NCBI GenBank assembly: GCA_965220725.1
Contig: OZ244840.1
Coordinates: 1,408,548 to 1,472,547, forward strand
Reading direction: 5' to 3'
DNA: 64,000 bases
Origin: Arenicellales bacterium
Lineage (GTDB): Bacteria; Pseudomonadota; Gammaproteobacteria; Arenicellales; JAJDZL01
Shown: positions 16,991-34,322 of the stretch, piece after piece
Layout of the letters: the number at the start of each line of letters is the position of its first letter
Numbering within the stretch: the first letter of the stretch is position 1
The notes under the pieces: model-generated
What the model saw: the letters and a program-made list of their open reading frames with translations, nothing else
Told to the model about the DNA's origin: nothing
The model's database searches: none
Translations under genes and position numbers: made by a program

Positions 16991-17367
16991 TTACCAGCAT
17001 CAGGGTGTATCGATGGTGGCTACCTTTCGAATCCATTGCTGTTTGATGCAAATCGGAACATTGGAGCTGAGTGAAGTTTCATATAGCGAGCGTTTGGCAG
17101 GTTTCGATTAATGATGGGTAACCTTAAGCACAATCTGCACTGTGAGGGATTGTCGATGGTTGACACGTCTAGGTTGAACATCCGGCAATCACGGATATCG
17201 TTCGCGTCTGGATACGAGCGCCGGCGCGCAGAAGAAACCTACCAAGTGGGTCAGGAATCATACTCCGAGTGCAAGATGCAGGATGTCATCACCATACGCT
17301 GGAATTTGTATTCGGCATCCACTCATACGCAGGGCGATGCGTCATCGGTTGGGGCGGTTCGATAATT

Positions 17368-20300
17368 TTGAAATCGAAAATATCGCGATTATTCGCATTC
17401 ATCGGGTGCTTGCTGTGCTTTTCGGTTACTGCGTATCCCACAGTGGCATCGGGAAATGTACTGAAGTACACCTTCTCTGATGATGGTACGACCGTGACCA
17501 TCACTGCCACGGGCAGGCTGGATGTCACGGACTTCAATTTTGTTCTGGATACCATCCCGTCGGATTATGCGCGAATCAGGATCGACGACACACAGATCTG
17601 GGGGATTCATCCGCCGCTTCAGCAGCCCGCCACCCCGATCAGACGCTACAGCGGACTTCCTGATTTCGTGACTACCGGCAGGGATACCTACGATGGTACG
17701 AACGAGCTCGACACTTTAAGCAACTACAGCTCCAATTACCAGATTGAGTTCAGCACATGGTCCAAGCGGTTGGAGTTGGACACGGAACGTTTGACGGGGA
17801 ACATCTACCAGATTTCGGACGGAGTGACGACGTTCACGGGAAGGTTGTATGACACCGATACCACAATCAAACAACTCGGAGACAATGATTTCCACATCGT
17901 GAATGCGATTGGCAGTCAGAAGATCATATTCACAACCCAGACCAGCCTGACACCGAGTTTCGGTACTGCGACGGTGGCTGATCAGAGTTACATGCAAGGC
18001 CGGGCCATCAGTGACCTCCAGTTGCCGGCGGCGAGCGGTGGCGATGGCACGCTGAGCTACTCGGTCATTCCGGCATTGCCGGCAGGGTTGTCGTTTGATG
18101 CAGCGAGCCGCAAGATAACAGGCACACCGACTGCCGCACAGGCGGCGACCGAGTACACCTATTCTGTTATTGACACCGACGGCGACATCGCGTTGCTGAA
18201 GTTCATGATCACGGTGGTGCAACAGCCGCACACGCTGAAGTACACCTTCTCTGATGACGGCACGACCGTGACCATCGCTGCCACGGGCAGGCTGGATGTC
18301 ACGAATTTCACTTTTGTTCGGGATGGCGTCCCGGGGGACTATTCACGAATCAAATTCGACGACACAGGGATCTGGGGGATTCATCCGCCGTCGCAGCCCA
18401 CCACCCAGGCCAGACGCTACGACGGACTTCCTGATTTTGTGACTACCGGTAAGGATACCTACGGTGGCACATCCGAGTTGGACGGGTTGAGCAACTACGC
18501 CTACGATTCCAATTACCACATTCGGTTCAATACCTGGCTCAAGTATCTGGAGCTGGACAACGGGCGTCTGACGGGAAACATCTACCAGATTTCGGACGGA
18601 GTGACGACGTTCACGGGAAAGTTGTATGACACTGATACCACAATCAAACAACTCGGAGACAATGACTTCCACATCGTGCATGCGATTGGCAGTCAGAAGA
18701 TCATTTTCACAACCCGGACCAGCCTGACACCGAGTTTCGGCACCGCGACGGTGGCTGATAAGAGTTACATGCAGAACCAGGCGATCAGTGAGTTGCAGTT
18801 GCCGGCGGCGAGCGGTGGCGATGGCACGCTGACCTACTCGGTCATTCCGGCATTACCCACAGGGTTGTCGTTTGATGCAGCGAGCCGCAAGATAACAGGC
18901 ACACCGACTGCTGCACAGGCGGCGACCGAGTACACCTATTCTGTGACTGACACCGACGGCGACATCGCGTTGCTGAAGTTCATGATCACGGTGGTGCAGC
19001 GGCCGCACACGCTGACATTCACGTTCTCTGACAATGGCACGACCTCGACCATTGCGGCCTCGGGCAGTCTGGATGTTTCGGGTTTCACTTTTGACCGGGA
19101 TCTGGAACAGCGGACAACTTTGAATCTCAAGATCGACGATACGGGTATCTGGGTGATTCATCCACAGCACCAGAACATCATCAATGTTTCGAAGAGTCGC
19201 TATAAGGATCTTCCGGCCTTTGTGACCACCGGCGGGGATACCTATACGGGCAGTACTGAAGTCCAGAATCTCAGCAACTATACCCAGCATGACTTCGCCA
19301 TCAGGTTCAGTCCTTCGGGTAGGTATCTGGAAATCGACAAGGCGAACCTGACCGGTGGTATCTACGATCTTACGGGCGAATCGGCGACGTTCACGGGTAC
19401 GTTGCTGAGTACCCTCAAAGACAATGACTTTCACATCGAGCATGCGATTGGGATTCACAAGATCATTTTCACGACGCCGGTTTATTTCGGCAATGCGACG
19501 ATTGGCAATAAGACATACACCAAGGGTAAGGCGATCAGTGATTTTGAGCTGCCTCAGGCGCGCAGCAGCGACGATCAGACGGTATCTTATTCGATCAGCC
19601 CGGATTTGCCTGCCGGGTTGTCATTCAATGCTGCGAGCCGCAAGTTGACGGGTACCCCGACTGCGGTGCAGGCAGCCACCGAGTACACCTACACAGCGAC
19701 GGATTCGGACGGCGACACTGCGACGCTGACGTTCGAGATCACGGTGTTGCAGCCGCGTACGCTGAGGTTCACGTTTTCCGATGACGGCACAACCACGACC
19801 ATTGCCGCTGCGGGCAGCCTGGATGTTTCGGGCTTCACATTCGATACGGATAAGCAGCCGACTAACGATAGGTTTCTCAGTATTGCCAATACGGATCGCT
19901 GGGCGATTTACCCATCGACTGTGGTTGGCATCAATATTCCACTGCGCCGCTATAAGGATCTTCCGGGCTTCGTGACCACCGGTAGCGACAGCTACACGGG
20001 CCTCGATCAAGTCGAAAATCTTCCAAACTACTCCGACGAGTTCACCATCCGGTTCCACACCCATGCCAAGTGGCTGGAAGTTGACAAGGCGAGCCTGACT
20101 GGAGATATCTACAATCCCTCGGGCAAGAAGGTGACGTTCACGGGCACGTTGCTGAGCACCCTCACTGACAATGACTTCCACATCGAGCTTGCGATCGGTC
20201 ACCAGAAGATCATATACACGACGACGCCCAACAAGACGCCGGATTTCGGTGTTGCGACAGTTGCCGATCAGACTTACGTGAAAGATGAGGCGATCAGCGA

Positions 20301-23300
20301 GCTCCTGCTGCCGGCGGCGACCGGTGGTGATGGCACGCTGAGCTATTCGATAAGCCCGGCCCTGCCCGCAGGACTGTCGTTTGATGATGTGAGCCGCAAG
20401 TTGACGGGCACACCGACAACAGATCAGGCGGGGACTGAGTACACCTACACTGCGAGCGATGACGAGGAGGACACCGCAACACTGACGTTCAAGATTTCGG
20501 TGGTGCCGGTACCGGACAAGCCGTCTGGTTTGAGTGCGGTTGGAAACAATGGACAAGTGAGCCTGCGCTGGGTCAATCCGCGCAACAGTCTGATCACGAA
20601 ATACCAGTACCGTCAACGAGCCGGCAGCGGGAATTTTGGTGCCTGGGAGGACATGTCGGACAGTGATGCGAATACCACCAGCCATACGGTGACCGGACTG
20701 ACCAACGGCACCGGCTACGGTTTCAGGATCCGGGCGGTGATTTCCCAGGTCAACGGAGTCGAGTCGGATGTGGTCACCGCAACACCCCGGTTGATGCAGC
20801 CGGCAAAGCCGACGCGGTTGCATGCATCCGTGCCGGCGACAGGTTCGGTTGACTTGCACTGGGTTGCGGTTGATGCGAGTGCGACCAGTTGGGAATACCG
20901 CAAACGGTTCGAGGTCAGGCGAGGCAGCGACGGGACACTGGTACGGCAGGACAGCTATGAAAACTGGACTGCGGTGACCAACAGCACTGCGACCACCCGT
21001 ACGGTTCAGGTCACCGGGTTGGAGACCGGCGTCAATCTGGGAAGCGGCGAGGAAGGCTGGTATCGGTTCCAGGTTCGTGGAAGGAATTCATTGGGGATGG
21101 GTCCGGCGTCCGATGAGGTTCAGGCGCGGCCGGTCCTCGAAACGGGTCTTTTCGGACCGGGTTATTCTGAACAACCCCAACGCTTCACGATCATTTCCGG
21201 ACAGCATACCACCTACACCTATCCGTCAATCATTAACCTGCATACAACGGAAGCCAATCCTAGTATGACTATCAGGGTGGAACCCGTAACCATCACACAT
21301 ACGTTCAAACCACAGGTAGACGGATGGATACCTAGTCATAGTGCGGACCTTCATCGTCAGGCGCACACGTTCTCGGGTACACACAACGGTGCCACGACGA
21401 ATCCGCTGGCTGGAACGGCGTCAGTCCGTGCGGGTGGGTCTCAAAGAGGTTCAGTGAATTTTTATTTCAGCTGGCTTGTGCCTCCTGATGCCCCGACTTC
21501 ACTGTCTGCGGCAGCCGCCGGCAGTGGCCGTGCATTGCTGAGCTGGGGTGATTTACCCTCAACAACGCACGAGCCGATACGCAATGCGATCAGTTACTGG
21601 GAATACCGATCCAAGGAATCGACAGCCACAGACTATACGGCGGACTGGAAACGGGTGGCTGGCAGCTCCGGGGCAACCCGCAGTCATCTTGTCACCGGTC
21701 TCGACGACAGCAAGTCCTATGATTTCGCAGTGCGGGCGGTGATCGACGCGGCCCGAATCGACAACCTGATCCGACCGGACGACCCGACCGCGGACATCGT
21801 CTTGGAAGGCTCGGCGGCAACCACCAGCGAGTCGTTCACTCCGGGTGAAGGGGTGGCGGCCGTGTTGGTCAATATCCCGTCGCTTGCGGTGACAGAGGGT
21901 GCTTCGGTGACCTACACGGTGTCGCTGGGCAAGCAGCCGACTGCGGATGTGACGATCACACCTTCAAGCAGTGTTGCGGCTCTTGCGAGTGTGTCTCCGT
22001 CCAGTCTGACCTTCACAGCGTCCAACTGGGCGACATCACAGACGGTGACGGTCACCGGTGTGGTGGACGATGATGGTGTGGGTGGAACAGCGACCGTGAC
22101 GCACAGTTTGAGCAGCACGGATACGGATTATGCGGGATTGGCTGCTTTGGCATTGCCGAGTGTCTCGGTCACGGTGAGCGATGATGACACTCCCGATCTG
22201 ACGCTGTCGGTGACCAGTCTTACCGGTCTGGATGAGGCAGGAACGCAGTCAAGGACTTACACGGTCAAACCGACGACCGCGCCGGCTTCGACGTTGACCG
22301 TGACGCCGCTGACAGGGAGTTCGTCTGTGACGCTGTCACCGGCCAGTCTGAGTTTTGATTCCAGCAACTGGCAGACGGCACAGACAGTCACAGTGACCGG
22401 TGCACAGGACGATGATGCAGTTGCAAATGATGTGCTGATCACGCATGGACTCAGCGGTCCGGCGGAATACAGTTCGTTGGACGGCACTGCGTATCAGGTG
22501 ACAGCGGCGGTAAGCGATGATGACACGGCCGGTATTACAGCACCGTTACCCGCCAGATTCAATCTGCGCGAAGGCAGCAGTTATGGGTATTCGGTTGTAT
22601 TGCAGACCAAACCATCGGCAGCGGTGACGCTGTCGGTCGGCAGCAGCAACACCAATGCGGTGACTGGCGGTTCAGTGACCTTCACACCAGGCAACTGGGC
22701 AACACCGCAGACATTGACAATCACCGCGGTGGATGATGCGACTGCCACATCAGCGGTGCTGACGCGCAGTCTCACCGGTGCGGCCGAGTATGCGGCATTG
22801 ACGCTGTCATCGGTAACGGTGGACGTGATCGACAATGACAGTCCCGGACTGGTGGTGTTCACCAATACCCTGGCGATGATCGAGGCAGGTGATGATGCCA
22901 GCTACACCATTTCACTGACGACCCAGCCGACAGCCGATGTGACACTGACGGTGACCAGTGGCGATTCAACGCTTGCGCAGGTGTCGTCCGACACCGGATC
23001 CACCAAAACATTCTCCGGCAGTGCTGATCTGACGTTCACGAATTCGAACTGGTCGAGCGCACAGACGGTGACGGTACGCAGTCCTGTCGATGGCAACTCA
23101 ACCGATGACAGCGTGACGCTGAGTCATACCGTGGCTTCAACGGATGCGGGTTACAACAATGTTGACCTGAGTGCTTCGGACATCACGGTGAGCATTTCCG
23201 ATGTGCCGGCGCCGGCGGCGCCGACGGGTTTGACGGCGACCGCGGGTGATGCACAGGTGACGCTGGAGTGGACGGATCCGGGCAACAGTACGATTACGCG

Positions 23301-26300
23301 TTATCAGGTTCAGCAAAAATCCGGCACTGATGCCTACGGTGAGTGGGGCGACATTGAAGGCAGCACGGCGGCCACCACCAGCCACATATTGACCGGGCTG
23401 GACAACAATACGACGTATACCTTCCGCATCCGGGCGGTGAACGCCGGTGGTGTCGGTGCAGCGTCAGTTGAGGCGGCGGCGACGCCGATTGCGATACCGG
23501 CGGCACCGACGGGTTTGGTGGCGACCGCGGGTGATGCACAGGTGACGCTGGACTGGACGGATCCGGGCGACAGTTCGATCACAGGCTATCAGGTTCAGCA
23601 AAAGTCGGGCAGCGATGACTACGGTGAATGGAGCGCCATTGCGAACAGCACGGCGACCACCACCAGCCACACGGTGACGGGGCTGGACAACGATACGGCG
23701 TATACCTTCCGAATCCGGGCGGTGAATGCCGCTGGAGGAGGAGAGGCGTCGGCTGCGGTGACGGCGACACCGATTGCGGTACCGGCGGCGCCGACGGAAT
23801 TCAAAGCCAAGGCGGGTGATACACAGGTGACGCTGAGCTGGGCGGATCCCGACAACAGTACGATCACGGGCTATCAGGTTCAGCAAAAGTCAGGTGATGA
23901 CGCCTACGGCGCGTGGAATGACATTGAAGACAGCACGGCGACCACCACTGAGCACACGGTGACGGGTTTGACCAACAACACAGTGTATGGATTCAGGGTT
24001 CGTGCGGTGAATGCCTCCGGCGAGGGTGCCGCGTCACAGGAGGTGTTGGAGACACCGGTGACGATACCAGCGGCGCCGACGGGTTTGACGGCGGTGGCAG
24101 GCGATGCGCAGGTGACGCTGGGTTGGACGGATCCGGGCAACGCCAGCATCAACAACTATCAGTACCAGTCCAAGTCCGGCAGTGATGGCTACGGTGCATG
24201 GACGGACATGATGGACAGCGGCGCCGCGACCGTCAGTTACAAGGTGACGGGACTGGTCAACGACACCGCGTATACCTTCCGCATCCGAGCGGTGAACGAC
24301 ACCGGCGAGAGTCCGGAATCGGCTGAGGTGACGGCGACGCCAATCGCGTTGCCGGCGGCACCGACGGGGCTGACGGCGACAGTGGGTGATGCGCAGGTGA
24401 CGCTGGGCTGGACGGATCCTCAAAACAGCACGATCACGGACTATCAGTATCAGTACAAGTCAGGCAGCGATGATTACGGTGCATGGACTGCGATGATGGG
24501 CAGCACCGCGACCACCACCAGTCACCTGGTGACAGGGTTGGTCAACGACACGGCCTACACGTTCCGGATTCGGGCGGTGAATGCCAGTGGAGAAGGAGCG
24601 GCATCAGCTGAGGTGACGCAGACGCCGATTGCAGTGCCATTGGTGCCGACTGGGTTGACGATCGCGAAGGGCGATGCGCAGTTGACACTGGGCTGGACAG
24701 ATCCTCAGAACAGCACAATCACTGGTTATCAGTATCAGTACAAGTCGGGCAGCGATGATTACAGTGCATGGACTGCGATGATGGGCAGCACCGCGACCAC
24801 CACCAGCCACCTGGTGACAGGGTTGGTCAACGAAACGGCCTACACGTTCCGGATTCGCGCGTTGAATGCGAGTGGAGCGGGAGCGGTTTCGGCTGAGGTG
24901 ACGCAGACACCGATTGCGGTGCCGGCGGCGCCGACGGGATTGACGGCTGCGGTGGGCGATGCGCAGGTGACGCTGGGCTGGACTGATCCTCAAAACAGCA
25001 CGATCACGGGCTATGAGTATCAATACAAATCCGATAGCAGTACCTACGGTGCCTGGACGGCGATGACGCCCAGTACCGCGACCACCATCAGCCACCTGGT
25101 GACAGGGTTGGTCAACGAAACGGCCTACACGTTCCGGATTCGCGCGTTGAATGCGAGTGGAGCGGGAGCGGTTTCGGCTGAGGTGACGCAGACACCGATT
25201 GCGGTGCCGGCGGCGCCGACGGGATTGACGGCTGCGGTGGGCGATGCGCAGTTGACGCTGGGTTGGACCGATCCTCAGAACAGCACGATCACGGGCTATG
25301 AGTATCAATACAAATCCGGCACCGGTACCTACGGTGCCTGGACGGCGATGGCGAACAGCACTGCGACCACCACCAGTCACCCGGTGACGGGGTTGGTCAA
25401 CGAAACGGCCTACACGTTCCGGATTCGCGCGTTGAATGCGAGTGGAGCGGGAGCGGTTTCGGCTGAGGTGACGCAGACACCGATTGCGGTGCCGGCGGCG
25501 CCGACGGGATTGACGGTGGCGGTAGGCAACACGGAGTTGGTGTTGAGCTGGACGGATCCAGGCAACAGCACGATCACGGGTTATCAGTATCAGTACAAGT
25601 CCAGCGGTAATGCCTACGGTGCCTGGATGGCGATGACGCCGAGCACCGCGACCACCACCACTCACACGGTGACGGGGCTGACCAATAATACGGCCTACAC
25701 TCTGCGGATTCGGGCGCTGAATGCGAGTGGAGAGGGTGCAGTGTCGGCCGAAGTAACACAGACGCCGATCGCGGTGCCGGCGGCACCGACGGGTCTGACG
25801 GCAGCGGTTGGCGACACGGAGTTGGTGTTGAGTTGGACGGATCCGGGCAACAGCACGATCACGGGTTATCAGTATCAGTACAAGTCCGGCAACAGTGCTT
25901 ACGGTGCCTGGATGGCGATGACGGACAGTACCGCGACCACCACCAGTCACACGGTGACGGGGTTGGTCAACGGTACGGCCTACACGATCCGGATTCGGGC
26001 GTTGAATGCGAATGGAGAGAGTACGGCGTCGGCTGAGGTGACGCAGACGCCGATTGCGGTGCCGGCGGCGCCGACGGGACTGACGGCTGCGGTAGGAGAC
26101 TCGGAGTTGGTGTTGAGCTGGACGGATCCGGGCAACAGCACGATCACGGGCTATCAGTATCAGTCCAAATCCGGCAGTGGTACCTACGGTGCCTGGCTAC
26201 CCATGACAGGCAGCACTGCGACCACCACGAGTCATACGGTCATGGGGTTGATCAACGGCACAGCCTACACGTTCCGGATTCGCGCATTGAATGTCAGTGG

Positions 26301-29300
26301 AGACGGTGCGGTGTCGGCCGAGGTGACGCAGACGCCGATCGCGGTACCAGCGGCGCCGACGGGACTGACGGCTGCGGTAGGCGATGCGGAGTTGGAGTTG
26401 AGCTGGACGGATCCGGGCAACAGCACGATTACGGGTTATGAATATCAGTACAAGTCCGGTAACGGTGTTTACGGCGCCTGGATGGCGATGACGGACAGCA
26501 CCGCGACCACCACCAGTCACACGGTGTCGGGTTTGGTTAACGGTACGGCCTACACATTGCGGATCCGGGCGTTGAACGTCAGTGGAGCGGGAGCGGTGTC
26601 GGCCGAGGTGACGCAGACGCCGATTGTGGTACCAGCGGCGCCGACGGGTCTGATGGCTGCGGTAGGTGACACGGAGTTGGTGTTGAATTGGACGGATCCA
26701 GGAAATGGCTCGATCACAGGATATCAGTATCAGTACAAGTCTGGCAATGGTGCTTATGGTGCCTGGATGGCGATGACGGACAGCACCGCGACCACCACTA
26801 GTCACACGGTGACAGGTTTGGTTAACGGTACGGCCTACACGATCCGGATTCGGGCGTTGAACGTCAGTGGAGAGGGTGCGGCGTCGGCCGAGGTGACACA
26901 GACACCGATTGCGGTGCCGGCGGTACCGGTGGGATTGACGGCTGCGGTAGGCGATGCGGAGTTGTCGTTGAGCTGGACGGATCCGGGCAACAGCACGATC
27001 ACGGGTTATGAATATCAGTACAAGTCCGGCGGCGGTGCCTACGGCGCTTGGACAGCGATGACGGGTAGTACCGCGATCACCACCAGTCACATGGTGACGG
27101 GGCTGGTCAACAATACGGCCTACACTCTTCGGATTCGGGCGATGAATGTCAGTGGAGCAGGGACGGCGTCGGCCGAGGTGACACAGACACCGATTGCGGT
27201 GCCTGCGGCGCCGACGGGTCTGACGGCGGCGGTAGGCGATGCGCAGTTGTCGTTGAGCTGGACGGATCCGGGCAACAGCACGATCACAGGTTATCAGTAT
27301 CAGTACAAGTCCGGCAACAATGCCTACAGTGCCTGGACGGCGATGACGCCGAGCACCGCGACCACCACCAGTCACACGGTGACGGGTCTGGTCAACGACA
27401 CGGCCTATACGTTGCGGATTCGGGCGTTGAACGTCAGTGGAGCGGGTGCGGCGTCGGCCGAGGTGACGCAGACACCGATTGCAGTACCGGCGGCGCCGGC
27501 GGGTCTGACGGCTGCGGTAGGCGATGCGCAGTTGTCGTTGAGCTGGACGGATCCAGGCAACAGCACGATCTCAGGTTATCAGTATCAGTACAAGTCCGGC
27601 AACGGTGCCTACGGTGCCTGGACGGCGATGATGCCGAGCACCGCGACCACCACCAGTTTTACAGTGACTAGTCTCGTCAACGGCACAGCCTATACGATCC
27701 GGATACGGGCGTTAAATATCAGTGGAGCGGGTGCGGCATCGGCCGAGGTGACACAGACACCGATTGCGGTACCGGCGGCGCCGACGGGTCTGACGGCTGC
27801 GGTGGGCGACGCGGAGTTGTCGTTGAGCTGGACGGATCCGGGCAACAGCACGATCACGGGTTATGAATTTCAGTACAAGTCCGGCAATGGTACCTACGGT
27901 GCTTGGACGGCGATGACGGGCAGCACCGCGACCACCACCAGTCATACGGTGACGGGTTTGGTGAACGACACGGCCTATACGTTGCGGATCCGGGCGTTGA
28001 ACGTCAGTGGAGCGGGTGCGGCGTCGGCCGAGGTGACGCAGACACCGATTGCGGTGCCGGCGGCGCCGACGGGTCTGACGGCTGCAGTAGGTGATGCGAA
28101 GTTGTTGTTGAGCTGGACGGATCCGGGCAACAGCACGATCTCAGGCTATCAGTATCAATACAAGTCCGGCAATGGTGCCTATGGTGCCTGGACGGCGATG
28201 ACGCCGAGCACTGCGACCACCACCAGTCATACGGTGACGGGTCTGGTCAACGACACGGCCTATACGTTGCGGATCCGGGCGTTGAACGTCAGTGGAGCGG
28301 GTGCGGTGTCGGCCGAGGTGACACAGACACCGATCGCGGTGCCGGCGGCGCCGACGGGTCTGATGGCTGCGGTTGGCGATGCGCAGTTGTCGTTGAGCTG
28401 GACGGATTCAGGCAACAGCACGATCTCAGGCTATCAGTATCAGTACAAGTCCGGCAATGGTGCCTATGGTGCCTGGACGGCGATGACGCCGAGCACCGCA
28501 ACCACCACCAGTCATACGGTGACAGGTCTGGTCAACGACACGGCCTATACGTTGCGGATTCGGGCGTTGAACGTCAGTGGAGCGGGTGCGGCGTCGGCCG
28601 AGGTGACGCAGACACCGATCGCGGTGCCGGCGGCGCCGACGGGTCTGACGGCTGCGGTAGGCGATGCGGAGTTGGAGTTGAGTTGGACGAATCCTGGTAA
28701 CAATACGATCACGGGCTATCAGTATCAATACAAGTCCGGCAATGGTGCCTATGGTGCCTGGACGGCGATGACGCCGAGCACCGCGACCACCACCAGTCAC
28801 ACGGTGATGGGTCTGGTCAACGACACAGCCTATACGTTGCGGATTCGGGCGATGAATGTCAGTGGAGCGGGTGCTGCGTCGGCTGAGGTGACGCAGACAC
28901 CGATTGCGGTACCAGCGGCACCGACAGGTCTGACGGCTGCGGTAGGTGATGCAAAGTTGGAGTTGAGCTGGACGGATCCAAGAAACAGCACGATTACGGA
29001 CTATCAGTATCAGTACAAGTCCGGCAACGGCGCCTACGGTGCCTGGATGTCGATGACGGGCAGCAACTCGACCACCACCAGTCACACATTGAGAAGTTTG
29101 GTCAACGACACGGCCTACACGATACGGATCCGGGCGCTGAATATCAGCGGAGCGGGTGCGGTGTCGGCCGAGGTGACGCAGACGCCGATCGCGGTGCCGG
29201 CAGCGCCGACGGGCCTGACGGCTGCGGTAGGCGATGCGGAGTTGTTGTTGAGCTGGACGGATCCAGGCAACAGCACGATTTCAGGCTATCAGTATCAGTA

Positions 29301-31974
29301 CAAGTCCGGCAATGGTGCCTATGGTGCCTGGACGGCGATTACGGGCAGCACCGCGACAACCACCAGTCACACGGTGACAGGGCTCGTCAACGACACGGCC
29401 TACACCTTGCGGATTCGGGCGTTGAATATCAGTGGAGCGGGTGCGGTGTCAGCCGAGGTGACGCAGACGCCGATCGCGGTGCCGGCGGCGCCGGTGGGAT
29501 TGACGGTGGCGGTAGGCGACGCGCGGTTGGTGTTGAACTGGACAGATCCGGGCAACAGCACGATCACGGGCTATCAGTACCAGTACAAGTCCGGCAGCGG
29601 CACCTACGGAGCCTGGATGCCGATGACGGGCAGCACCGCGACAACCACCAGTCACCTGGTGACGGGGCTGGTCAACGACACGGCCTATGCTTTCCGGATT
29701 CGGGCGTTGAATATCAGTGGAGCGGGTGCAGTGTCGGCCGAGGTGACACAGACGCCGATCGCGGTACCGGCGGCGCCGACAGGTCTGACGGCGACGGGCG
29801 GCGATGAACAGGTGATACTGACCTGGACTGATCCGGGTAATCGTTCAATCACGGGCTATGAATTCCAGTACAAGTCCGGCAGCGGACCCTACGGTGCCTG
29901 GATGGACATCGAAAACAGTACGGCGTCAACTGTAAGTCACACGGTGGCGAACCTGACCAATGGAGTTCAATATGTGTTCAAGATCCGCGCGGCGAATGTG
30001 TCCGGTGATGGAGCTGAGTCAGTTGAAAAATCAGCGATACCGCAGCCACCAATACCGGCGGTACCGACAGGATTCACAGTGCAGGTTGGTGACAACCGGG
30101 CAACTCTCAGGTGGTCTATACCGACTAATACGACTTCGATTTCGAGAATTGAGGTTCGCCATCAGGTTAAGGGCGCGTCGGACTGGAGTGACTGGGTTCG
30201 GCTTTCTGCGACAACGACCGAGTATACGGTGACCGGTCTGGTGAACGGAGAGACCTATATCTTTGAGGTCCGCGCAGTGAATTCAACAGGCTCAGGAGAA
30301 GCGGCAACGAAGGAAGAGCGACTTCGCCTGACGGTGCCGGACAAGCCGACGGGGTTGAAAGCAGAGCTGGGTGACGCTGTAGTGAGTCTTAGCTGGGTAC
30401 TGCCGACCAATGTGAATGAAATCACCGGTGTGGAGGTTCGCCACAAGGAAGCTGCGACGTCAGACTGGAGCGTTTGGACGATGCTGCCGGCAGATGCGAC
30501 ATCTTACACAGTTTCGACTGGACTAGCCATAGGTGTAGTAAACACATTTGAGGTCAGGGCGGTCAACTCTGTTGGTAACGGTAGTGCAGCATCGATTGAT
30601 GCGACACCGGTTCTGAGAGGGTCGTTGATCGAAGAGAGTACCAGGGAAACTCTTCCAGAAGTGGCAGCCATTATGGGTAGCGAGATCGTATCCGGCATAA
30701 GGACTCGTATCCAGGGTTTCGATACGACTTCGGGTTCCGGTGGAGTGCGTTTCAATGCGAGGCACAACGAATTGTTCTCATCAGAAAAATGGAATGAACC
30801 GGTACAGTTGGATGAGCAAGGGTTCCTGTTTGATGGTCGGTTTGAGACGCTGGTGAATTCACTTGGTCAGTCGGCTGATGGCCGGCATGCATCGCCGGTT
30901 TCGATTTGGACCGGAGCTGCGCTAAAGCGGTTCAAAGACGACGGAGGTGCTTTGCAATACGATGGTGAGATGTCCAGCTACAGTTTCGGACTGGACACCA
31001 GGCTTGGCGAGAACACGCTGGGTGGTTTCACAATGTCGAGGTTCACCGGTAAGACGGATTATGAGCGCGAAGGCGCTTCTGGACGTCAACAGATCAATGT
31101 GACAAGTGTCAATCCCTATTTCGGTTTGAAGAAATCGGAGTATTCAGTGTGGTCTTTTGTTGGCGCTGGTTCGGGTGAATTGGAGGTGGAGCAGGACTTC
31201 GTGAGCGGTGTCAGCACCAGTGACCTGTCTTTGAATACGCTGGGTGTTGGTGCAAGTGGTGAAGTGTGGCGCAGTGCAAGAACAACATTGCACCTTACGG
31301 GTGAGATTACGGTAACCGAGTTGAGTGTGGATGGTTCGGACACGATCGATGCAGTGAAGGTCGGAGCCAATCGCAGTCGCATGATTCTGTCCGCCAGTCA
31401 GCGCTATCAGATGGACCGGGGCGGCTATGTGGAGCCGAAGTTCGAGTTTGGCGTGGCACACGACAGCGGAGACGGTTCTACCGGTAGCCGACTGGAGATT
31501 GGAGCCGGTATGTACTATCTGTCGCCTTCGCAACGGATATCGATGTCACTGTCATCCTATAGTCTGGTGGAACGGAACAATTACAGCGAGTGGGGAGTTG
31601 AGGCTGGTATTCGAATGTTGCCGGGAGCAAGGGAGCGTGGCTTGTCATTCAGTCTGCAACCTTCCTACGGCGCAACGGTACGAGGCGTTGATCGGATTTG
31701 GGAGTCCAGCCGAACGATTGGTGACGAGGTGGATGATGAAGTATATCGTCCTCGACTCGACGCAAATCTTGGTTTTGGAATACCTATTATTGGAAACAGA
31801 GGATTGTTGACACCTTACGGCGAAGCATCAGTTAAAGAGGACGATAAGACTTATCGCGTTGGAACCCGATTCAATAATGGTTCCGGCTTCGAGTTGAATC
31901 TGTATGGCGAGACCGAAGATTCGATAAGCGATACGCGGCGTTCAATCAGGTTGCAGGGTGGAATCCGATTCTAG
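17368..31974 (+). CDS. Giant autotransporter-type adhesin, paralog 2 (about 4868 aa from TTG 17368)
   Basis: The ORF is open from 17269. Alignment with paralog 1 places the signal peptide (LKSKISRLFAFIGCLLCFSVTA) at TTG 17368; the 33 upstream codons are not signal-like and align to the non-coding leader of paralog 1. N-terminal architecture matches paralog 1. Then come one super-repeat unit, 24 tandem FN3, 2 PTN-type FN3 and a C-terminal beta-domain ending ...LQGGIRF. Confidence 0.85.
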   Translation: MKSKISRLFAFIGCLLCFSVTAYPTVASGNVLKYTFSDDGTTVTITATGRLDVTDFNFVLDTIPSDYARIRIDDTQIWGIHPPLQQPATPIRRYSGLPDFVTTGRDTYDGTNELDTLSNYSSNYQIEFSTWSKRLELDTERLTGNIYQISDGVTTFTGRLYDTDTTIKQLGDNDFHIVNAIGSQKIIFTTQTSLTPSFGTATVADQSYMQGRAISDLQLPAASGGDGTLSYSVIPALPAGLSFDAASRKITGTPTAAQAATEYTYSVIDTDGDIALLKFMITVVQQPHTLKYTFSDDGTTVTIAATGRLDVTNFTFVRDGVPGDYSRIKFDDTGIWGIHPPSQPTTQARRYDGLPDFVTTGKDTYGGTSELDGLSNYAYDSNYHIRFNTWLKYLELDNGRLTGNIYQISDGVTTFTGKLYDTDTTIKQLGDNDFHIVHAIGSQKIIFTTRTSLTPSFGTATVADKSYMQNQAISELQLPAASGGDGTLTYSVIPALPTGLSFDAASRKITGTPTAAQAATEYTYSVTDTDGDIALLKFMITVVQRPHTLTFTFSDNGTTSTIAASGSLDVSGFTFDRDLEQRTTLNLKIDDTGIWVIHPQHQNIINVSKSRYKDLPAFVTTGGDTYTGSTEVQNLSNYTQHDFAIRFSPSGRYLEIDKANLTGGIYDLTGESATFTGTLLSTLKDNDFHIEHAIGIHKIIFTTPVYFGNATIGNKTYTKGKAISDFELPQARSSDDQTVSYSISPDLPAGLSFNAASRKLTGTPTAVQAATEYTYTATDSDGDTATLTFEITVLQPRTLRFTFSDDGTTTTIAAAGSLDVSGFTFDTDKQPTNDRFLSIANTDRWAIYPSTVVGINIPLRRYKDLPGFVTTGSDSYTGLDQVENLPNYSDEFTIRFHTHAKWLEVDKASLTGDIYNPSGKKVTFTGTLLSTLTDNDFHIELAIGHQKIIYTTTPNKTPDFGVATVADQTYVKDEAISELLLPAATGGDGTLSYSISPALPAGLSFDDVSRKLTGTPTTDQAGTEYTYTASDDEEDTATLTFKISVVPVPDKPSGLSAVGNNGQVSLRWVNPRNSLITKYQYRQRAGSGNFGAWEDMSDSDANTTSHTVTGLTNGTGYGFRIRAVISQVNGVESDVVTATPRLMQPAKPTRLHASVPATGSVDLHWVAVDASATSWEYRKRFEVRRGSDGTLVRQDSYENWTAVTNSTATTRTVQVTGLETGVNLGSGEEGWYRFQVRGRNSLGMGPASDEVQARPVLETGLFGPGYSEQPQRFTIISGQHTTYTYPSIINLHTTEANPSMTIRVEPVTITHTFKPQVDGWIPSHSADLHRQAHTFSGTHNGATTNPLAGTASVRAGGSQRGSVNFYFSWLVPPDAPTSLSAAAAGSGRALLSWGDLPSTTHEPIRNAISYWEYRSKESTATDYTADWKRVAGSSGATRSHLVTGLDDSKSYDFAVRAVIDAARIDNLIRPDDPTADIVLEGSAATTSESFTPGEGVAAVLVNIPSLAVTEGASVTYTVSLGKQPTADVTITPSSSVAALASVSPSSLTFTASNWATSQTVTVTGVVDDDGVGGTATVTHSLSSTDTDYAGLAALALPSVSVTVSDDDTPDLTLSVTSLTGLDEAGTQSRTYTVKPTTAPASTLTVTPLTGSSSVTLSPASLSFDSSNWQTAQTVTVTGAQDDDAVANDVLITHGLSGPAEYSSLDGTAYQVTAAVSDDDTAGITAPLPARFNLREGSSYGYSVVLQTKPSAAVTLSVGSSNTNAVTGGSVTFTPGNWATPQTLTITAVDDATATSAVLTRSLTGAAEYAALTLSSVTVDVIDNDSPGLVVFTNTLAMIEAGDDASYTISLTTQPTADVTLTVTSGDSTLAQVSSDTGSTKTFSGSADLTFTNSNWSSAQTVTVRSPVDGNSTDDSVTLSHTVASTDAGYNNVDLSASDITVSISDVPAPAAPTGLTATAGDAQVTLEWTDPGNSTITRYQVQQKSGTDAYGEWGDIEGSTAATTSHILTGLDNNTTYTFRIRAVNAGGVGAASVEAAATPIAIPAAPTGLVATAGDAQVTLDWTDPGDSSITGYQVQQKSGSDDYGEWSAIANSTATTTSHTVTGLDNDTAYTFRIRAVNAAGGGEASAAVTATPIAVPAAPTEFKAKAGDTQVTLSWADPDNSTITGYQVQQKSGDDAYGAWNDIEDSTATTTEHTVTGLTNNTVYGFRVRAVNASGEGAASQEVLETPVTIPAAPTGLTAVAGDAQVTLGWTDPGNASINNYQYQSKSGSDGYGAWTDMMDSGAATVSYKVTGLVNDTAYTFRIRAVNDTGESPESAEVTATPIALPAAPTGLTATVGDAQVTLGWTDPQNSTITDYQYQYKSGSDDYGAWTAMMGSTATTTSHLVTGLVNDTAYTFRIRAVNASGEGAASAEVTQTPIAVPLVPTGLTIAKGDAQLTLGWTDPQNSTITGYQYQYKSGSDDYSAWTAMMGSTATTTSHLVTGLVNETAYTFRIRALNASGAGAVSAEVTQTPIAVPAAPTGLTAAVGDAQVTLGWTDPQNSTITGYEYQYKSDSSTYGAWTAMTPSTATTISHLVTGLVNETAYTFRIRALNASGAGAVSAEVTQTPIAVPAAPTGLTAAVGDAQLTLGWTDPQNSTITGYEYQYKSGTGTYGAWTAMANSTATTTSHPVTGLVNETAYTFRIRALNASGAGAVSAEVTQTPIAVPAAPTGLTVAVGNTELVLSWTDPGNSTITGYQYQYKSSGNAYGAWMAMTPSTATTTTHTVTGLTNNTAYTLRIRALNASGEGAVSAEVTQTPIAVPAAPTGLTAAVGDTELVLSWTDPGNSTITGYQYQYKSGNSAYGAWMAMTDSTATTTSHTVTGLVNGTAYTIRIRALNANGESTASAEVTQTPIAVPAAPTGLTAAVGDSELVLSWTDPGNSTITGYQYQSKSGSGTYGAWLPMTGSTATTTSHTVMGLINGTAYTFRIRALNVSGDGAVSAEVTQTPIAVPAAPTGLTAAVGDAELELSWTDPGNSTITGYEYQYKSGNGVYGAWMAMTDSTATTTSHTVSGLVNGTAYTLRIRALNVSGAGAVSAEVTQTPIVVPAAPTGLMAAVGDTELVLNWTDPGNGSITGYQYQYKSGNGAYGAWMAMTDSTATTTSHTVTGLVNGTAYTIRIRALNVSGEGAASAEVTQTPIAVPAVPVGLTAAVGDAELSLSWTDPGNSTITGYEYQYKSGGGAYGAWTAMTGSTAITTSHMVTGLVNNTAYTLRIRAMNVSGAGTASAEVTQTPIAVPAAPTGLTAAVGDAQLSLSWTDPGNSTITGYQYQYKSGNNAYSAWTAMTPSTATTTSHTVTGLVNDTAYTLRIRALNVSGAGAASAEVTQTPIAVPAAPAGLTAAVGDAQLSLSWTDPGNSTISGYQYQYKSGNGAYGAWTAMMPSTATTTSFTVTSLVNGTAYTIRIRALNISGAGAASAEVTQTPIAVPAAPTGLTAAVGDAELSLSWTDPGNSTITGYEFQYKSGNGTYGAWTAMTGSTATTTSHTVTGLVNDTAYTLRIRALNVSGAGAASAEVTQTPIAVPAAPTGLTAAVGDAKLLLSWTDPGNSTISGYQYQYKSGNGAYGAWTAMTPSTATTTSHTVTGLVNDTAYTLRIRALNVSGAGAVSAEVTQTPIAVPAAPTGLMAAVGDAQLSLSWTDSGNSTISGYQYQYKSGNGAYGAWTAMTPSTATTTSHTVTGLVNDTAYTLRIRALNVSGAGAASAEVTQTPIAVPAAPTGLTAAVGDAELELSWTNPGNNTITGYQYQYKSGNGAYGAWTAMTPSTATTTSHTVMGLVNDTAYTLRIRAMNVSGAGAASAEVTQTPIAVPAAPTGLTAAVGDAKLELSWTDPRNSTITDYQYQYKSGNGAYGAWMSMTGSNSTTTSHTLRSLVNDTAYTIRIRALNISGAGAVSAEVTQTPIAVPAAPTGLTAAVGDAELLLSWTDPGNSTISGYQYQYKSGNGAYGAWTAITGSTATTTSHTVTGLVNDTAYTLRIRALNISGAGAVSAEVTQTPIAVPAAPVGLTVAVGDARLVLNWTDPGNSTITGYQYQYKSGSGTYGAWMPMTGSTATTTSHLVTGLVNDTAYAFRIRALNISGAGAVSAEVTQTPIAVPAAPTGLTATGGDEQVILTWTDPGNRSITGYEFQYKSGSGPYGAWMDIENSTASTVSHTVANLTNGVQYVFKIRAANVSGDGAESVEKSAIPQPPIPAVPTGFTVQVGDNRATLRWSIPTNTTSISRIEVRHQVKGASDWSDWVRLSATTTEYTVTGLVNGETYIFEVRAVNSTGSGEAATKEERLRLTVPDKPTGLKAELGDAVVSLSWVLPTNVNEITGVEVRHKEAATSDWSVWTMLPADATSYTVSTGLAIGVVNTFEVRAVNSVGNGSAASIDATPVLRGSLIEESTRETLPEVAAIMGSEIVSGIRTRIQGFDTTSGSGGVRFNARHNELFSSEKWNEPVQLDEQGFLFDGRFETLVNSLGQSADGRHASPVSIWTGAALKRFKDDGGALQYDGEMSSYSFGLDTRLGENTLGGFTMSRFTGKTDYEREGASGRQQINVTSVNPYFGLKKSEYSVWSFVGAGSGELEVEQDFVSGVSTSDLSLNTLGVGASGEVWRSARTTLHLTGEITVTELSVDGSDTIDAVKVGANRSRMILSASQRYQMDRGGYVEPKFEFGVAHDSGDGSTGSRLEIGAGMYYLSPSQRISMSLSSYSLVERNNYSEWGVEAGIRMLPGARERGLSFSLQPSYGATVRGVDRIWESSRTIGDEVDDEVYRPRLDANLGFGIPIIGNRGLLTPYGEASVKEDDKTYRVGTRFNNGSGFELNLYGETEDSISDTRRSIRLQGGIRF
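17461..20505 (+). repeat. Four tandem composite modules (unknown domain + cadherin-like Ig domain) in paralog 2
   Basis: Module starts are at 17461, 18235, 19012 and 19762. From module 2 onward they are collinear with paralog 1 at a constant offset of 15105 nt. Confidence 0.85.
23205..30045 (+). repeat. 24 tandem in-frame 285-bp (95-aa) FN3 repeat units
   Basis: I counted 24 successive units of the form PIAVPAAPTGLTAAVGDAxLxLSWTDPGNSTITGYQYQYKSGNGAYGAWTAMTxSTATTTSHTVTGLVNDTAYTLRIRALNVSGAGAxSAEVTQT. 24 x 285 nt equals the 6.84 kb span. Central units differ by only a few residues. Confidence 0.85.
30615..31974 (+). other. Putative linker plus autotransporter beta-barrel translocator region of paralog 2
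   Basis: Collinear with the paralog 1 C-terminus (RGSLIEESTRETLPEVAAIMG... to ...RSIRLQGGIRF). By eye it is only about two-thirds to three-quarters identical to paralog 1. Confidence 0.65.
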
Positions 31975-32772
31975 CGGACACTCAATATTTCAACGGAATT
32001 TTGTTGGCGTTTGCTGAAACTCACGCAGCTGTCCATTCGGTGCAAAAAGCCTTCTGAAGCTTCAAGGCTGAACATCGATTCCTTATTGGCTTCCTCGGAC
32101 ATTTCCCCAAAAATCTTGTCCGCTTCTATTGAGTCGCGCTGGCCCGGTCCTTTGGTGGATCAAGAACTCAGTCAGTCAGAGTTTTCCCATGTGTTGTAGC
32201 CTGCAAGTACAGTGGTTCTCGGTAGTCGCTTGAAACATGAATACACAGATTTGTCGCTGCATTGGAATTCACAGTGAAAGAATTAAAGACGTTGACTTGA
32301 TTGCAAAATGAGTGTATTCGGATATGCATGTATTTCAAAGTGACATTCTCCTCGCACACAACAACTTTCACTGCCAGATTCAAAAAGTCAGATCAATTGT
32401 TGAAGTCAGTTTTCGATTGGTCGACCCGACACCAGTGTTGGTGCGACTTCAGTTCAGTCGATCGCCAAGTTCGAAGTCCAACAGGTCATGTGAAATCTTG
32501 TAGTCTCACACGCACCACAGCGCATTGACTTGAAGCGGCACAGTTATTTGAAATGTCAAGTGAATATGATTTCGCTGACAGTCAATCGGTTTTCATTCAT
32601 TGAAAATCTTGGAAAAGATAGTATTATTTACTGCATCGTGAGGATGTTGACTTACAATTGTCCAAACCATGGCAGGAGTGCCTGCAGCGAAATTCATTCT
32701 CTGCTGATATCGTATCGGTAGAAGGATTGAAGGAATTAAATCTACCTAAACCGTTCTGGGGATCAGACTTAA

Positions 32773-32985
32773 ATGCTTGAGAATACTTCCGAGGAAATCC
32801 AAACAAGAATTGAGAAACTTAAAACTGAACACCGGGATCTCGACGACGTGCTGAACAGGCTGTCAGAAGATCTCAATGTCGATGAACTGCAGATCAGAAG
32901 AATGAAAAAACGCAAACTGCAGCTCAAGGACACCATAATGATGCTGGAAAGCCAGTTGATGCCTGACGTATCCGCAAGGAAATAA
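32773..32985 (+). CDS. DUF465 (YdcH-like) small coiled-coil protein
   Basis: 70 aa. The pattern ...KLKTEHRDLDDVLNRL....DELQIRRMKKRKLQLKDTI... matches the DUF465 signature (H..LD..I......LKK.KL.LKD.I). Confidence 0.7.
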   Translation: MLENTSEEIQTRIEKLKTEHRDLDDVLNRLSEDLNVDELQIRRMKKRKLQLKDTIMMLESQLMPDVSARK

Positions 32986-32992
32986 GCCAGGC

Positions 32993-33013
32993 AGGAACGC
33001 CCCGGGCGTTCCT
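32993..33013. terminator. GC-rich palindrome between convergent genes (possible bidirectional terminator)
   Basis: aggaacgccc/gggcgttcct is a perfect 20-21-nt palindrome lying between the DUF465 stop and the ahcY stop. No strong U-tract on either strand. Confidence 0.4.
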
Positions 33014-34322
33014 AGTAGCGGTAGTATTCCGGTTTGAAAGGCCCTTCAGCCGGAACGCCGATGTAATCAGCCTGCTCGTCCGTCAGGCGAGTCAGGGTTG
33101 CACCGATTTTATCCAGGTGAAGTCGGGCGACCTCCTCATCCAGATGCTTGGGCAGCACATACACCTCATTGTGATAGTCATCGGCATTCTTCCACAGCTC
33201 GATTTGCGCCAGCACCTGGTTGGTGAACGAATTTGACATCACAAAACTCGGATGGCCGGTGGCACAACCGAGATTCACCAGCCGCCCTTCCGCTAACAGG
33301 ATCAGACGCTTACCATCAGGAAAGATGATGTGATCAACCTGTGGCTTGATGTTTTCCCATTCCAGTTCTCGCAGTGAGGCGACATCAATCTCGCCGTCGA
33401 AGTGACCGATGTTGCAAACGATCGCCTGATCCTTCATCTGCCGCATGTGATCCATCGTGATCACATGCCAGTTGCCGGTCGCGGTCACGAAGATATCCGC
33501 AACAGCGGCGGCTTCTTCCATGGTCACCACCCGGTAACCCTCCATCGCCGCCTGCAGTGCGCAGATCGGATCGACTTCGGTGACCAGGACGTTGGCACCC
33601 TGTCCGCGCAGCGACTGTGCACATCCCTTGCCGACATCGCCATATCCGCAAACCACGGCCACCTTGCCTGCAATCATCACGTCAGTCGCCCGCTTGATGC
33701 CGTCAAGCAGTGACTCCCGGCAACCATACAGATTGTCGAACTTGCTTTTCGTCACCGAGTCATTGACGTTGAATGCCGGGCATTTCAGCGATTGATCCTT
33801 GACCATCTCATGCAGGCGGTGAACTCCGGTGGTGGTCTCCTCGGTCAGTCCGCGGACGTTGGCCATCAACTCCGGATACTTCTCATGCATCACTACAGTC
33901 AAATCTCCACCGTCATCCAGCAGCATGTTCGGAGTCCAGTTGTCCGGTCCGAATATGGTTTGATCCACACACCACCAGTATTCCTCCTCGGTCTCACCTT
34001 TCCAGGCAAATACCGGTGTTCCAGTGGCGGCAATCGCAGCGGCAGCATGGTCCTGCGTTGAGAATATGTTGCACGATGACCATCGCACCTCGGCACCCAG
34101 ATGCTGAAGCGTCTCAATCAGCACGGCAGTCTGAATGGTCATATGCAGACAGCCGGCGATTCGCGCACCTTGAAGAGGACGTTCTTCCGAGAACTTGTCC
34201 CGGATCGCCATCAGTCCTGGCATCTCGGTCTCGGCGATTGCGATTTCCTTGCGTCCCCATTGTGACAGACCAAGGTCTGCAACCTTGTAGTCATCTGATA
34301 TCGATTTCAGCACTGCGGACAT
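33012..34322 (-). CDS. ahcY: Adenosylhomocysteinase
   Basis: 436 aa. The N-terminus [29 protein letters not shown] and an NAD-binding glycine-rich segment ([12 protein letters not shown]) are typical of SahH. AGGAGG sits upstream of the ATG. Confidence 0.95.

Follow-up and report, generated by a model that had tools for sequence, protein, structure and literature searches.

The 24-unit fibronectin type III (FN3) array of the gene P2 is fairly likely to serve a giant fibrillar adhesin as its membrane-proximal stalk, with a copy number that is slow to change. P2 (17368–31974, forward strand) was recognized from the ORF list, the translation, and the upstream sequence as the gene of a giant surface protein of 4868 codons. 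It lies in a window of 64,000 nucleotides, i.e., the whole stretch of DNA analyzed, from an Arenicellales bacterium (contig OZ244840.1), and all coordinates refer to this window. The core units of the array have a synonymous divergence (dS) of ~0.48 and a dN/dS of ~0.22 (dN 0.10); for this reason, they are old copies kept by purifying selection.

Organization of the FN3 array

Cutting the reading frame gave 24 consecutive in-frame units of 95 amino acids (285 bp) at positions 23206–30045. Tandem Repeats Finder reported a single array (23198–29902) with a period of 285, 23.5 copies, 84% matches, 0% indels, and a score of 7369, while Pfam fn3 matched 27 stretches across the P2 protein (E = 0). 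The 24 tandem 285-bp FN3 units described in an earlier reading of the letters alone (the sequence-only reading) are thus borne out, as is their end at 30045; the start, which had been placed at 23205, was one base too early with respect to the frame. The linkers between the FN3 units are 3–4 residues long, and no insertions or deletions were found.

Units 1–4 (23206–24345, forward strand) form a diverged 5′ edge, with 66–83% nucleotide identity among themselves. They are followed by the core, units 5–23 (24346–29760, forward strand), with a mean identity of 83.9% at the nucleotide level and 83% at the amino acid level, and by unit 24 (29761–30045, forward strand), a diverged 3′ edge with 60–67% nucleotide identity to every other unit. 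The most homogeneous block of the core consists of units 15–20 and 22, which are 87–95% identical, whereas units 1–4 and 24 are 60–83% identical to the others; the contrast between central homogenization and diverged edges, suggested earlier, was therefore recovered. Higher-order periodicity was sought within the array and none was found in the window, in contrast with a relative (L083) that carries a 3-unit super-repeat.

Downstream of the array lie two FN3 domains of another subtype (30046–30615, forward strand), with 35–44% nucleotide identity to the array units. The same subtype makes up the C-terminal FN3 domains of the paralog P1 and the 13.8-copy array of a relative (L003). On the reverse strand, the ORFs at 24604–25950 and 26197–27375, which had been taken as another sign of the repeat, are indeed present and periodic (self-identity at a 95-aa lag: 0.77 and 0.65); they arise as periodic by-products of the GC3-rich repeat rather than as genes.

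Age and recombination of the units

The mean pairwise nucleotide identity among all the 24 units was 78.6%, and the closest pair, units 18 and 19, reached 94.7% (15 differences over 285 bp, with at least 15 in every other pair), figures that do not bear out the description of the units as near-identical. That they differ at only a handful of positions is correct for few pairs (four amino acids for 18/22, five for 18/19), while core pairs typically differ at ~16 amino acids. Long identical nucleotide stretches are present, as had been noticed, but they are few: 163 bp between units 6 and 7, 127 bp twice (7/8 and 6/8), and 95 bp between units 15 and 19. From the column profile, the variable residues fall in loops and at putative outward-facing strand positions, and the core Trp, Tyr, and Leu are invariant.

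Unit identity declines with distance along the array: it is 0.871 between neighbours (lag 1) and 0.824 at lag 11, with a Spearman coefficient of −0.47 (none of 2,000 permutations was as extreme). Exact shared runs also revealed a mosaic tract joining units 6, 7, and 8 (24804–25516, forward strand), referable to gene conversion or unequal crossover. In more detail, positions 24804–24966 are copied exactly at 25089–25251 (163 bp), and the 127-bp run starting at 24820 and 25105 recurs from 25390. The tract spans 57 consecutive matching polymorphic sites and is the sole significant one (global permutation p = 0.027). Together with 153 exact in-register runs of at least 25 bp between units, only 13 of which reach 50 bp, it agrees with the proposal that the array contains substrates for recombination. 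The unit junctions were also considered as a homogenized recombination hot spot and rejected, synonymous codon diversity being flat along the unit (0.23–0.28).

The youngest unit pairs have a dS of 0.118–0.148, to be compared with inter-strain values of 0.016–0.103 for housekeeping genes and 0.113 for P1 orthologues. Since the divergence of the youngest pairs equals or exceeds that between the two strains, the turnover of units appears slow, and no unit seems to have been born or homogenized since approximately the strain split; deletions in other strains, which leave no trace in divergence, lie outside the reach of this dS argument. Set against the core dS of ~0.48 and the inter-strain range of 0.016–0.11, the rapid length variation expected by the sequence-only reading is unsupported.

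Copy number

Every unit of the array is unique. Repeated 150-mers account for 0.42% of the array, all in units 6–8, and there are no repeated k-mers at k ≥ 164. The warning about an assembly hazard was overstated, and the copy number, previously considered unreliable for a short-read assembly, is exposed to a small risk limited to units 6–8 and not to one extending over the array at large. Furthermore, a long-read contig from another sample (L002) is collinear with positions 28164–33886 at 99.56% identity, including the same units 18–24, in the same order, and the 3′ flank. The count of 24 is trustworthy, save for a possible one-unit ambiguity at units 6–8.

We consider it very improbable that the number 24 is an artefact of repeat collapse or expansion. 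Units 6–8 contain three exact repeats of 127 bp or more, which could mislead a short-read de Bruijn assembly, and neither of two low-coverage long-read contigs crosses the array (L001 ends 0.96 kb before the gene, and L002 begins inside the array). On the other hand, any two units differ by at least 15 positions, no k-mer of 164 or longer is repeated, the 14.6-kb reading frame is unbroken and the array contains zero indels, and the match to L002 comes from a different sample. The length of the source contig (2.94 Mb) also suggests a long-read assembly.

Exact look-ups with three alternative starts returned no second full-length P2 on record, and P2 is alone in its 90% cluster. The protein search with the array gave no match above 50% identity, and the JGI metagenome scans gave 0 hits with a 24-mer present in seven units and 0 relatives with the barrel protein.

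Architecture of the P2 protein

The length of P2 is counted from the likely TTG start at 17368; the mechanical ORF starts at GTG 17269, and the database gene call at GTG 17443, corresponding to P2 residues 26–4868. A Sec signal peptide (LKSKISRLFAFIGCLLCFSVTAYPTVASG; 17368–17454, forward strand) was predicted by inspection, from a basic n-region and, after it, a hydrophobic core of 15 residues, both traits being visible in P1 too. Then come four head modules (17458–20506, forward strand; starts at 17458, 18232, 19009, and 19759), each composed of a ~160-aa domain followed by a He_PIG Ig-like domain (four He_PIG in total). The ~160-aa domain had zero matches in Pfam, where no known adhesive domain was found at the distal end, and its relatives amount to only 30 representatives among 1.84 billion proteins; its AlphaFold model (pLDDT 30) did not yield a fold. 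The middle region (20507–23205, forward strand), ~95% common to P1, comprises FN3 domains, a stretch without family, and four ~100-aa repeats without family.

At the other end, the protein closes with a 32-residue conserved helix, a low-confidence linker, and a predicted autotransporter-like C-terminal outer-membrane beta-barrel ending in GGIRF (30616–31971, forward strand). The Pfam Autotransporter family (PF03797) matched the C-terminus with E = 8e-5 and 22.9 bits, under the gathering score of 26. The barrel model (pLDDT 65) has ~18 predicted strands, with the 32-residue helix ahead of it and a ~55-residue low-confidence segment in between. Its top Foldseek matches were the beta-domains of BrkA, Hbp, EspP, and NalP, with target-normalised TM-scores of 0.45–0.59. 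When the barrel alignment was used as a profile against PDB sequences, no autotransporter barrel was found, only Calx-beta matches, which stemmed from what lies upstream of the barrel in the aligned homologues. The moderate confidence of the model, the ~18 strands in place of the canonical 12, and the sub-threshold Pfam score are points against the assignment. The same barrel is found in many genomes with FN3 or Calx-beta-like arrays immediately upstream.

The signal peptide, the distal head modules, and the C-terminal barrel (autotransporter beta-domains in Foldseek, sub-threshold Autotransporter in Pfam) are consistent with the head-bearing stalk topology advanced by the sequence-only reading. 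Given the N-terminal signal peptide and the C-terminal barrel, the array would lie beside the membrane anchor, with the head modules at the distal end.

Paralog P1 and strain variation

P1 (2242–15786, forward strand; 4514 aa) shares its head and middle regions with P2, at 94.8% nucleotide identity to positions 17368–23279. The homology stops at 23279, 73 nt inside unit 1, and no 285-bp array is present in P1, where 5.9 kb of different FN3 and repeat modules stand instead; the absence of an equivalent array from the paralog had been correctly noted. The barrels of the two proteins are 65% identical at the amino acid level, and a tract with a dS of 0.009 marks gene conversion between the two genes.

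The low-GC spacer and the entire P2 form a strain-variable segment of 16.75 kb (15806–32557) lacking in two related contigs (L082/L084 and L086), where P1 is directly followed by DUF465 and AdoHcyase. In this segment, the ORF at 16661–17074 was considered as a transposase remnant and dropped, having no Pfam match at E ≤ 0.01. P1 has four head modules here and two in a relative. The strain variation observed at the locus consists of the presence or absence of P2 and of the number of P1 head modules; because of the latter (four vs two), repeat-number change between strains does occur in the P1/P2 gene family.

Stalk, periscope, or multivalent binder

P2 would be exported via Sec, and the divergent autotransporter-like C-terminal barrel would anchor it in the outer membrane, with a passenger of ~4400 aa of Ig-fold domains on display. 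With a rise of ~3.5 nm assumed per FN3 domain, the 24 units would likely act as a spacer of ~80–90 nm, whose putative rod shape is suggested by the short linkers, keeping the four N-terminal head modules off the cell. The array grew by tandem duplication and by local gene conversion or unequal crossover, a local process being indicated by the fall of identity with lag and by the mosaic tract of units 6–8. Most of the units are old and each is conserved through purifying selection on the FN3 fold; since they are old and individually conserved, the copy number would change slowly, beyond strain-divergence times, and would not serve as a rapid contingency switch. Coherently, the number of FN3 domains is 18 in each of six relatives whose FN3 units are diverged, which suggests that diverged arrays are stable. 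The term adhesin itself is suggested by the architecture of P2.

A different possibility is that frequent RecA-dependent unequal recombination resizes the array within populations, tuning the projection of the head. The core units are above the detection criteria of Periscope Proteins (80% identity, 50 residues) (Whelan et al. 2021, PMC8201768), exact in-register runs and a mosaic tract are available in the array, and recombination is active at the locus, as shown by the P1/P2 conversion tract and the strain-dependent number of head modules. Moreover, Calx-beta-like arrays beside the same barrel vary between congeners (ORFs of 2123 vs 2848 aa and of 1509 vs 1616 aa). We consider such frequent resizing unlikely, however: the mean dS of the core is 0.48, the youngest pair (dS 0.118) is not younger than the strain split, and no pair of units falls under 15 differences. 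In the Periscope survey, extreme variation goes with the highest repeat identity (PMC8201768). The sole independent sequence, L002, has units 18–24 identical in order, and P2 has no recorded length variant.

The array could also be itself a multivalent binder of a repeated host or matrix ligand (sponge extracellular matrix, glycans), with the variety of units providing avidity or breadth. The substitutions cluster in the predicted CC′, C′E, and FG loops and at outward-facing strand positions, and these are the usual binding surfaces of FN3 domains. FN3 domains of sponge symbionts have been proposed as mediators of attachment (PMC8163846), and the boundary between stalk and adhesive domain is blurred in fibrillar adhesins (PMC9210967). 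Nevertheless, the overall dN/dS is 0.22 and nothing here points to positive selection, neutral drift under fold constraint gives the same pattern of variation, and rare, separate distal head modules fit a head and a stalk with separate tasks. For these reasons, binding by the array is improbable, and we prefer the reading of a slowly changing stalk.

Probable sponge-symbiont context

The source organism is probably a sponge-associated gammaproteobacterium, because the relatives of the barrel are mostly in MAGs whose names point to sponge symbionts and because of the AdoHcyase matches (86% identity to a protein filed under Geodia barretti, 89% to a protein of an Acidiferrobacterales MAG). Among reference genomes, the barrel had only distant relatives, at 28–38% identity. 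In sponge MAGs, FN3 and cadherin genes are enriched and laterally transferred (Robbins et al. 2021, PMC8163846), and the sponge cyanobiont 277cV encodes multi-FN3 proteins with an autotransporter domain, as well as cadherin (Burgsdorf et al. 2019, PMC6506613). The 277cV genome is among the matches of the barrel family (L044, L058). P2 differs from 277cV-type and other sponge FN3 proteins in its much larger size, its homogeneous 24-unit array, and its rare head modules, and the sponge link of its source is a probable one.

FN3-plus-autotransporter proteins were already known in sponge symbionts; to this FN3/cadherin repertoire, P2 adds a large strain-variable surface protein whose observed variation lies outside the repeat array. 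The locus also provides a worked example of how a fast "periscope" can be told from a stable stalk using only unit dS, exact-run lengths, and an inter-strain clock. A broader reading, tentative and as a whole doubtful, would place P2 in a type V-like system that is not formally described, with a divergent barrel and a conserved helix, an all-Ig-fold passenger (FN3 or Calx-beta-like), an occurrence mostly in sponge microbiomes, and a spread by lateral transfer among eight or more phyla. In such a system, the array would be a molecular ruler of fixed length, and strains would vary through gain or loss of paralogs and the number of head modules.

Comparison with known systems

SiiE, LapA, and MpIBP are type 1-secreted giant adhesins in which tens of tandem Ig-like repeats extend distal binding modules, and the P2 array can be likened to their extender repeats. 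The ends are different: these proteins start with a retention module and finish with a T1SS signal at the C-terminus, whereas P2 starts with a signal peptide and finishes with a barrel. With type Va autotransporters (BrkA, EspP, Hbp, NalP), P2 shares the N-terminal Sec signal, a large passenger, an aromatic C-terminus, and, as far as the model goes, a pre-barrel helix. However, the type Va passenger is typically, although not universally, a beta-helix, while that of P2 is made up of FN3, He_PIG, and further repeat domains; in addition, PF03797 is sub-threshold in P2, the low-confidence model has more than the 12 strands that, behind a pore-traversing alpha-helix, form the type Va barrel, and a ~55-residue low-confidence segment separates helix and barrel.

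Great length, an Ig-fold repetitive stalk, a surface anchor, and a distinct distal N-terminus are common to P2 and to the fibrillar adhesins (Monzon and Bateman; PMC9210967). The combination of long protein, repetitive stalk, and anchor that marks these adhesins is found in P2 (4868 aa, 27 fn3, 4 He_PIG, barrel), while their recognized distal adhesive domain is absent from it.

Periscope Proteins (SasG/Aap, Rib, Sgo_0707 SHIRT, CdrA; PMC8201768) and P2 both have a tandem array of similar domains between the anchor and the N-terminal functional region. As in Periscope Proteins, the identity between adjacent core domains of P2 (79–95% aa) is far over the norm of multidomain proteins. The Periscope repeat-identity level is reached by units 5–23, while units 1–4 and 24 (55–77%) fall below it; that adjacent core units attain this 80% cut-off counts against the slow stalk. 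Periscope Proteins are defined by strain-to-strain variation in copy number, whereas P2 is known from one full-length sequence; P2 also has a lower DNA identity (84% mean) and old units (dS 0.48), and its anchor is an outer-membrane barrel rather than LPXTG. The best reading of these comparisons is that P2 is periscope-like in architecture, and it is an ordinary member of the known class of repetitive bacterial adhesins.

Anatomy of the FN3 array and architecture of P2

The FN3 array of P2, the giant surface-protein gene at 17368-31974 (+), is a real feature. Tandem Repeats Finder identified one array at 23198-29902 (period 285, 23.5 copies, 84% matches, 0 indels, score 7369) inside an ORF of 4901 codons (17269-31974), and cutting the translation every 95 residues gave 24 clean FN3-like units from 23206 to 30045. 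Against this reading-frame cut, the location given by the sequence-only reading was right to within one base, its count of 24 holds provided that the diverged last unit is counted, and the antisense ORFs over the array are, as it took them, periodic by-products of the repeat. At the protein level, the Pfam fn3 family matched 27 stretches of P2 (E = 0).

From its N-terminus, P2 presents a signal-peptide-like segment, four head modules (each a ~160-aa domain without family plus He_PIG), and a middle region that combines FN3 domains with ~100-aa repeats. Next come the 24-unit array, two more FN3 domains whose subtype differs from that of the array, and non-repeat sequence, with a C-terminal region of 452 aa as its last part. 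This region had a sub-threshold match to the Pfam Autotransporter family (E = 8e-5), and AlphaFold modelled it, at moderate confidence (pLDDT 65), as a beta-barrel of about 18 strands preceded by a 32-residue helix; its closest folds in the PDB were the BrkA, Hbp, EspP, and NalP beta-domains. Because the region models as a barrel matching autotransporter beta-domains, the array is probably anchor-proximal, adjoining the predicted barrel as the stalk orientation first proposed implied. Given about 18 strands and the moderate model confidence, P2 is a candidate type Va autotransporter. The ~160-aa head domain (17458-17937 and seven paralogous copies) had no Pfam match, and among 1.84 billion proteins its representative relatives number only 30, most of them within other giant proteins; its AlphaFold model had a pLDDT of 30.

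Unit similarity and assembly reliability

The units had been described as near-identical with long identical stretches, and neither description held in full. Averaged over all pairs, nucleotide identity was 78.6% for the complete set of 24 units and 83.9% for the core (units 5-23), and even the closest pair, units 18/19, has 15 differences (94.7% identity). The edges are lower than the core, which bears out the suspected identity gradient: units 1-4 share 66-83% among themselves, and unit 24 shares 60-67% with all the others. Amino-acid identity of the core units was on average 83%, at best 96%. The exact shared stretches are short, the longest being 163 bp (24804-24966 = 25089-25251, units 6/7), followed by two of 127 bp and one of 95 bp; in-register exact runs of at least 50 bp number 13, and those of at least 25 bp number 153.

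No two of the 24 units are the same, non-unique 150-mers amount to only 0.42% of the array (all in 24804-25251), and no k-mer of the array is repeated at k >= 164. The worst case for an assembly from short reads would be a one-unit ambiguity around units 6-8. Furthermore, a long-read contig obtained independently from a second sample (ERZ25072670) matches 28164-33886 collinearly at 99.56%, a stretch that takes in the barrel and 3' flank as well as units 18-24, and the source contig of the window is 2.94 Mb long. Of the assembly hazard, a possible slight ambiguity at units 6-8 thus stands, while the wider risk does not, every unit being distinct and the independent contig agreeing for units 18-24.

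Evolution and turnover of the array

The core units gave a dS of 0.48 and a dN of 0.10 (ratio 0.22, Nei-Gojobori), so the copies are old and purifying selection maintains each of them. The variable columns sit at the expected FN3 loops and at outward-facing strand residues (strand assignment inferred), core aromatic and aliphatic residues are invariant across units, and synonymous codon diversity is level all along the unit.

The units carry traces of exchange. Identity decreases with array distance, being 0.871 for neighbouring units (lag 1) and 0.824 at lag 11 (Spearman -0.47; 0/2000 permutations of unit order as extreme), a decay characteristic of duplication or conversion acting locally. 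In a GENECONV-style permutation analysis, p was <= 0.01 in 6/171 unit pairs and the sole globally significant mosaic tract involved units 6/7/8 (p = 0.027); recombination has therefore acted on the array, but rarely. Unit age was gauged against the divergence from a related strain (ERZ25072236 contig_3, loci L082/L084), taken as a clock. Between the window and this strain, dS was 0.016-0.103 for the housekeeping genes adjoining the locus and 0.113 for the orthologues of P1, the 4514-aa paralog of P2 at 2242-15786 (+); the youngest unit pairs had a dS of 0.118 (7/8) and 0.148 (18/19). On this clock, no array unit has been made or overwritten since about the split of the two strains, a statement that concerns births and overwriting only, deletions elsewhere being possible. 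The collections searched contain no other full-length P2 against which to compare copy number. Overall, the array was correctly located from the start, but the first account made too much of how similar its units are, how variable it is, and how risky it is to assemble.

Paralogy and variation between strains

P1 and P2 have their 5' 5.9 kb in common at 94.8% identity. The homology ends 73 nt inside array unit 1 and restarts from 30224 at 69% identity. At the array position P1 has 5.9 kb of other modules, and no 285-bp repeat was found in it, in agreement with the view that it lacks an equivalent array. A second copy of the middle region lies inside P1 (8708-11472 vs 5402-8211, about 80% nucleotide identity) and fills part of the place held by the array in P2. 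The dS of the shared 5' part (17368-23279 vs 2248-8174) was 0.097, and only 0.009 in codons 330-660, against 1.4 for the barrels, so the two genes are old paralogs, with gene conversion homogenising their 5' parts.

The region 15806-32557, whole P2 included, is missing from two related contigs (L084 and L086, flank identity 98.3% and 97.9% respectively), making a 16.75-kb presence/absence polymorphism of P2 plus a low-GC (45%) spacer. In these contigs (ERZ25072236 and ERZ25072258) the 3' end of P1 is joined straight to the DUF465/AdoHcyase flank; P2 is present in ERZ25072670. P1 has four head modules in the window and two in its L084 orthologue (4002 aa), where module 1 gives way directly to module 4, with the switch at the module boundary (window 3127-4653, P1 head modules 2-3; L084 10400-11050), as in-register recombination between repeats would produce. 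Since head-module number and P2 presence differ between strains, repeat-mediated change in the family takes place at long, similar modules and through whole-paralog gain or loss.

Within the low-GC spacer that separates P1 from P2, an ORF (16661-17074, 137 aa) was considered as a transposase remnant and rejected, having no Pfam match. Elsewhere in the window, the segment 41495-43769, made up of a DNA methylase gene (41779-42870, N6_N4_Mtase) and the gene beside it, shares only about 80% identity with the related strain, both flanks being 97-98% identical; the segment looks like a strain-variable methylase island. A single 1020-aa ORF (45172-48234) encodes a fusion of the alpha and beta subunits of glycyl-tRNA synthetase. 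The AdoHcyase of the window shares 86% identity with a protein listed under the sponge Geodia barretti and places the organism near Acidiferrobacterales-like Gammaproteobacteria.

Barrel relatives and known systems

Reference genomes contain 398 relatives of the barrel, each about 28-38% identical to it, and these span many phyla. Loci L004-L081 (barrel ~10001-11400) belong to Alpha- and Gammaproteobacteria, Acidobacteriota, Nitrospirota, Thermodesulfobacteriota, Binatia, and Cyanobacteria MAGs. By inference from their names, many of the MAGs are those of sponge symbionts. In their passengers, arrays directly upstream of the barrel are FN3 (18 domains in six loci, 32 in one, and 8 in a cyanobiont) or Calx-beta-like (2-27 domains), a pattern that suggests lateral spread within sponge microbiomes. 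Nor are 24 units extreme, since a metagenome contig (ERZ25070786, L083 5092-21558) carries a 58-unit, 282-bp FN3 array (79% matches), in which a higher-order period of 3 units (849 bp) is superimposed and whose protein sequence is 50% identical to that of the window array.

The architecture of P2 matches that of fibrillar adhesins (PMC9210967) and resembles that of Periscope Proteins, whose defining behaviour is length variation between strains and in which variation tracks repeat identity (PMC8201768). The dS data disfavour variation of this type in the P2 array. Congener ORFs with near-identical Calx-beta-like units vary in size (2123 vs 2848 aa; 1509 vs 1616 aa) and relatives with diverged 18-FN3 arrays keep a constant domain number, which fits that rule. 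A better candidate than the window array for a truly length-variable stalk is the Calx-beta-like array that two Candidatus Versatilivorator genomes carry beside a window-type barrel, with 16.4 copies in one (L057 4152-9519), where several neighbouring units are identical in protein, and 9.5 in the other (L054 6441-9540). FN3-rich proteins with cadherin and autotransporter domains were already described in a sponge cyanobiont (PMC6506613), and sponge MAGs are known for an enrichment of FN3 and cadherin genes, which also pass between them by lateral transfer (PMC8163846).
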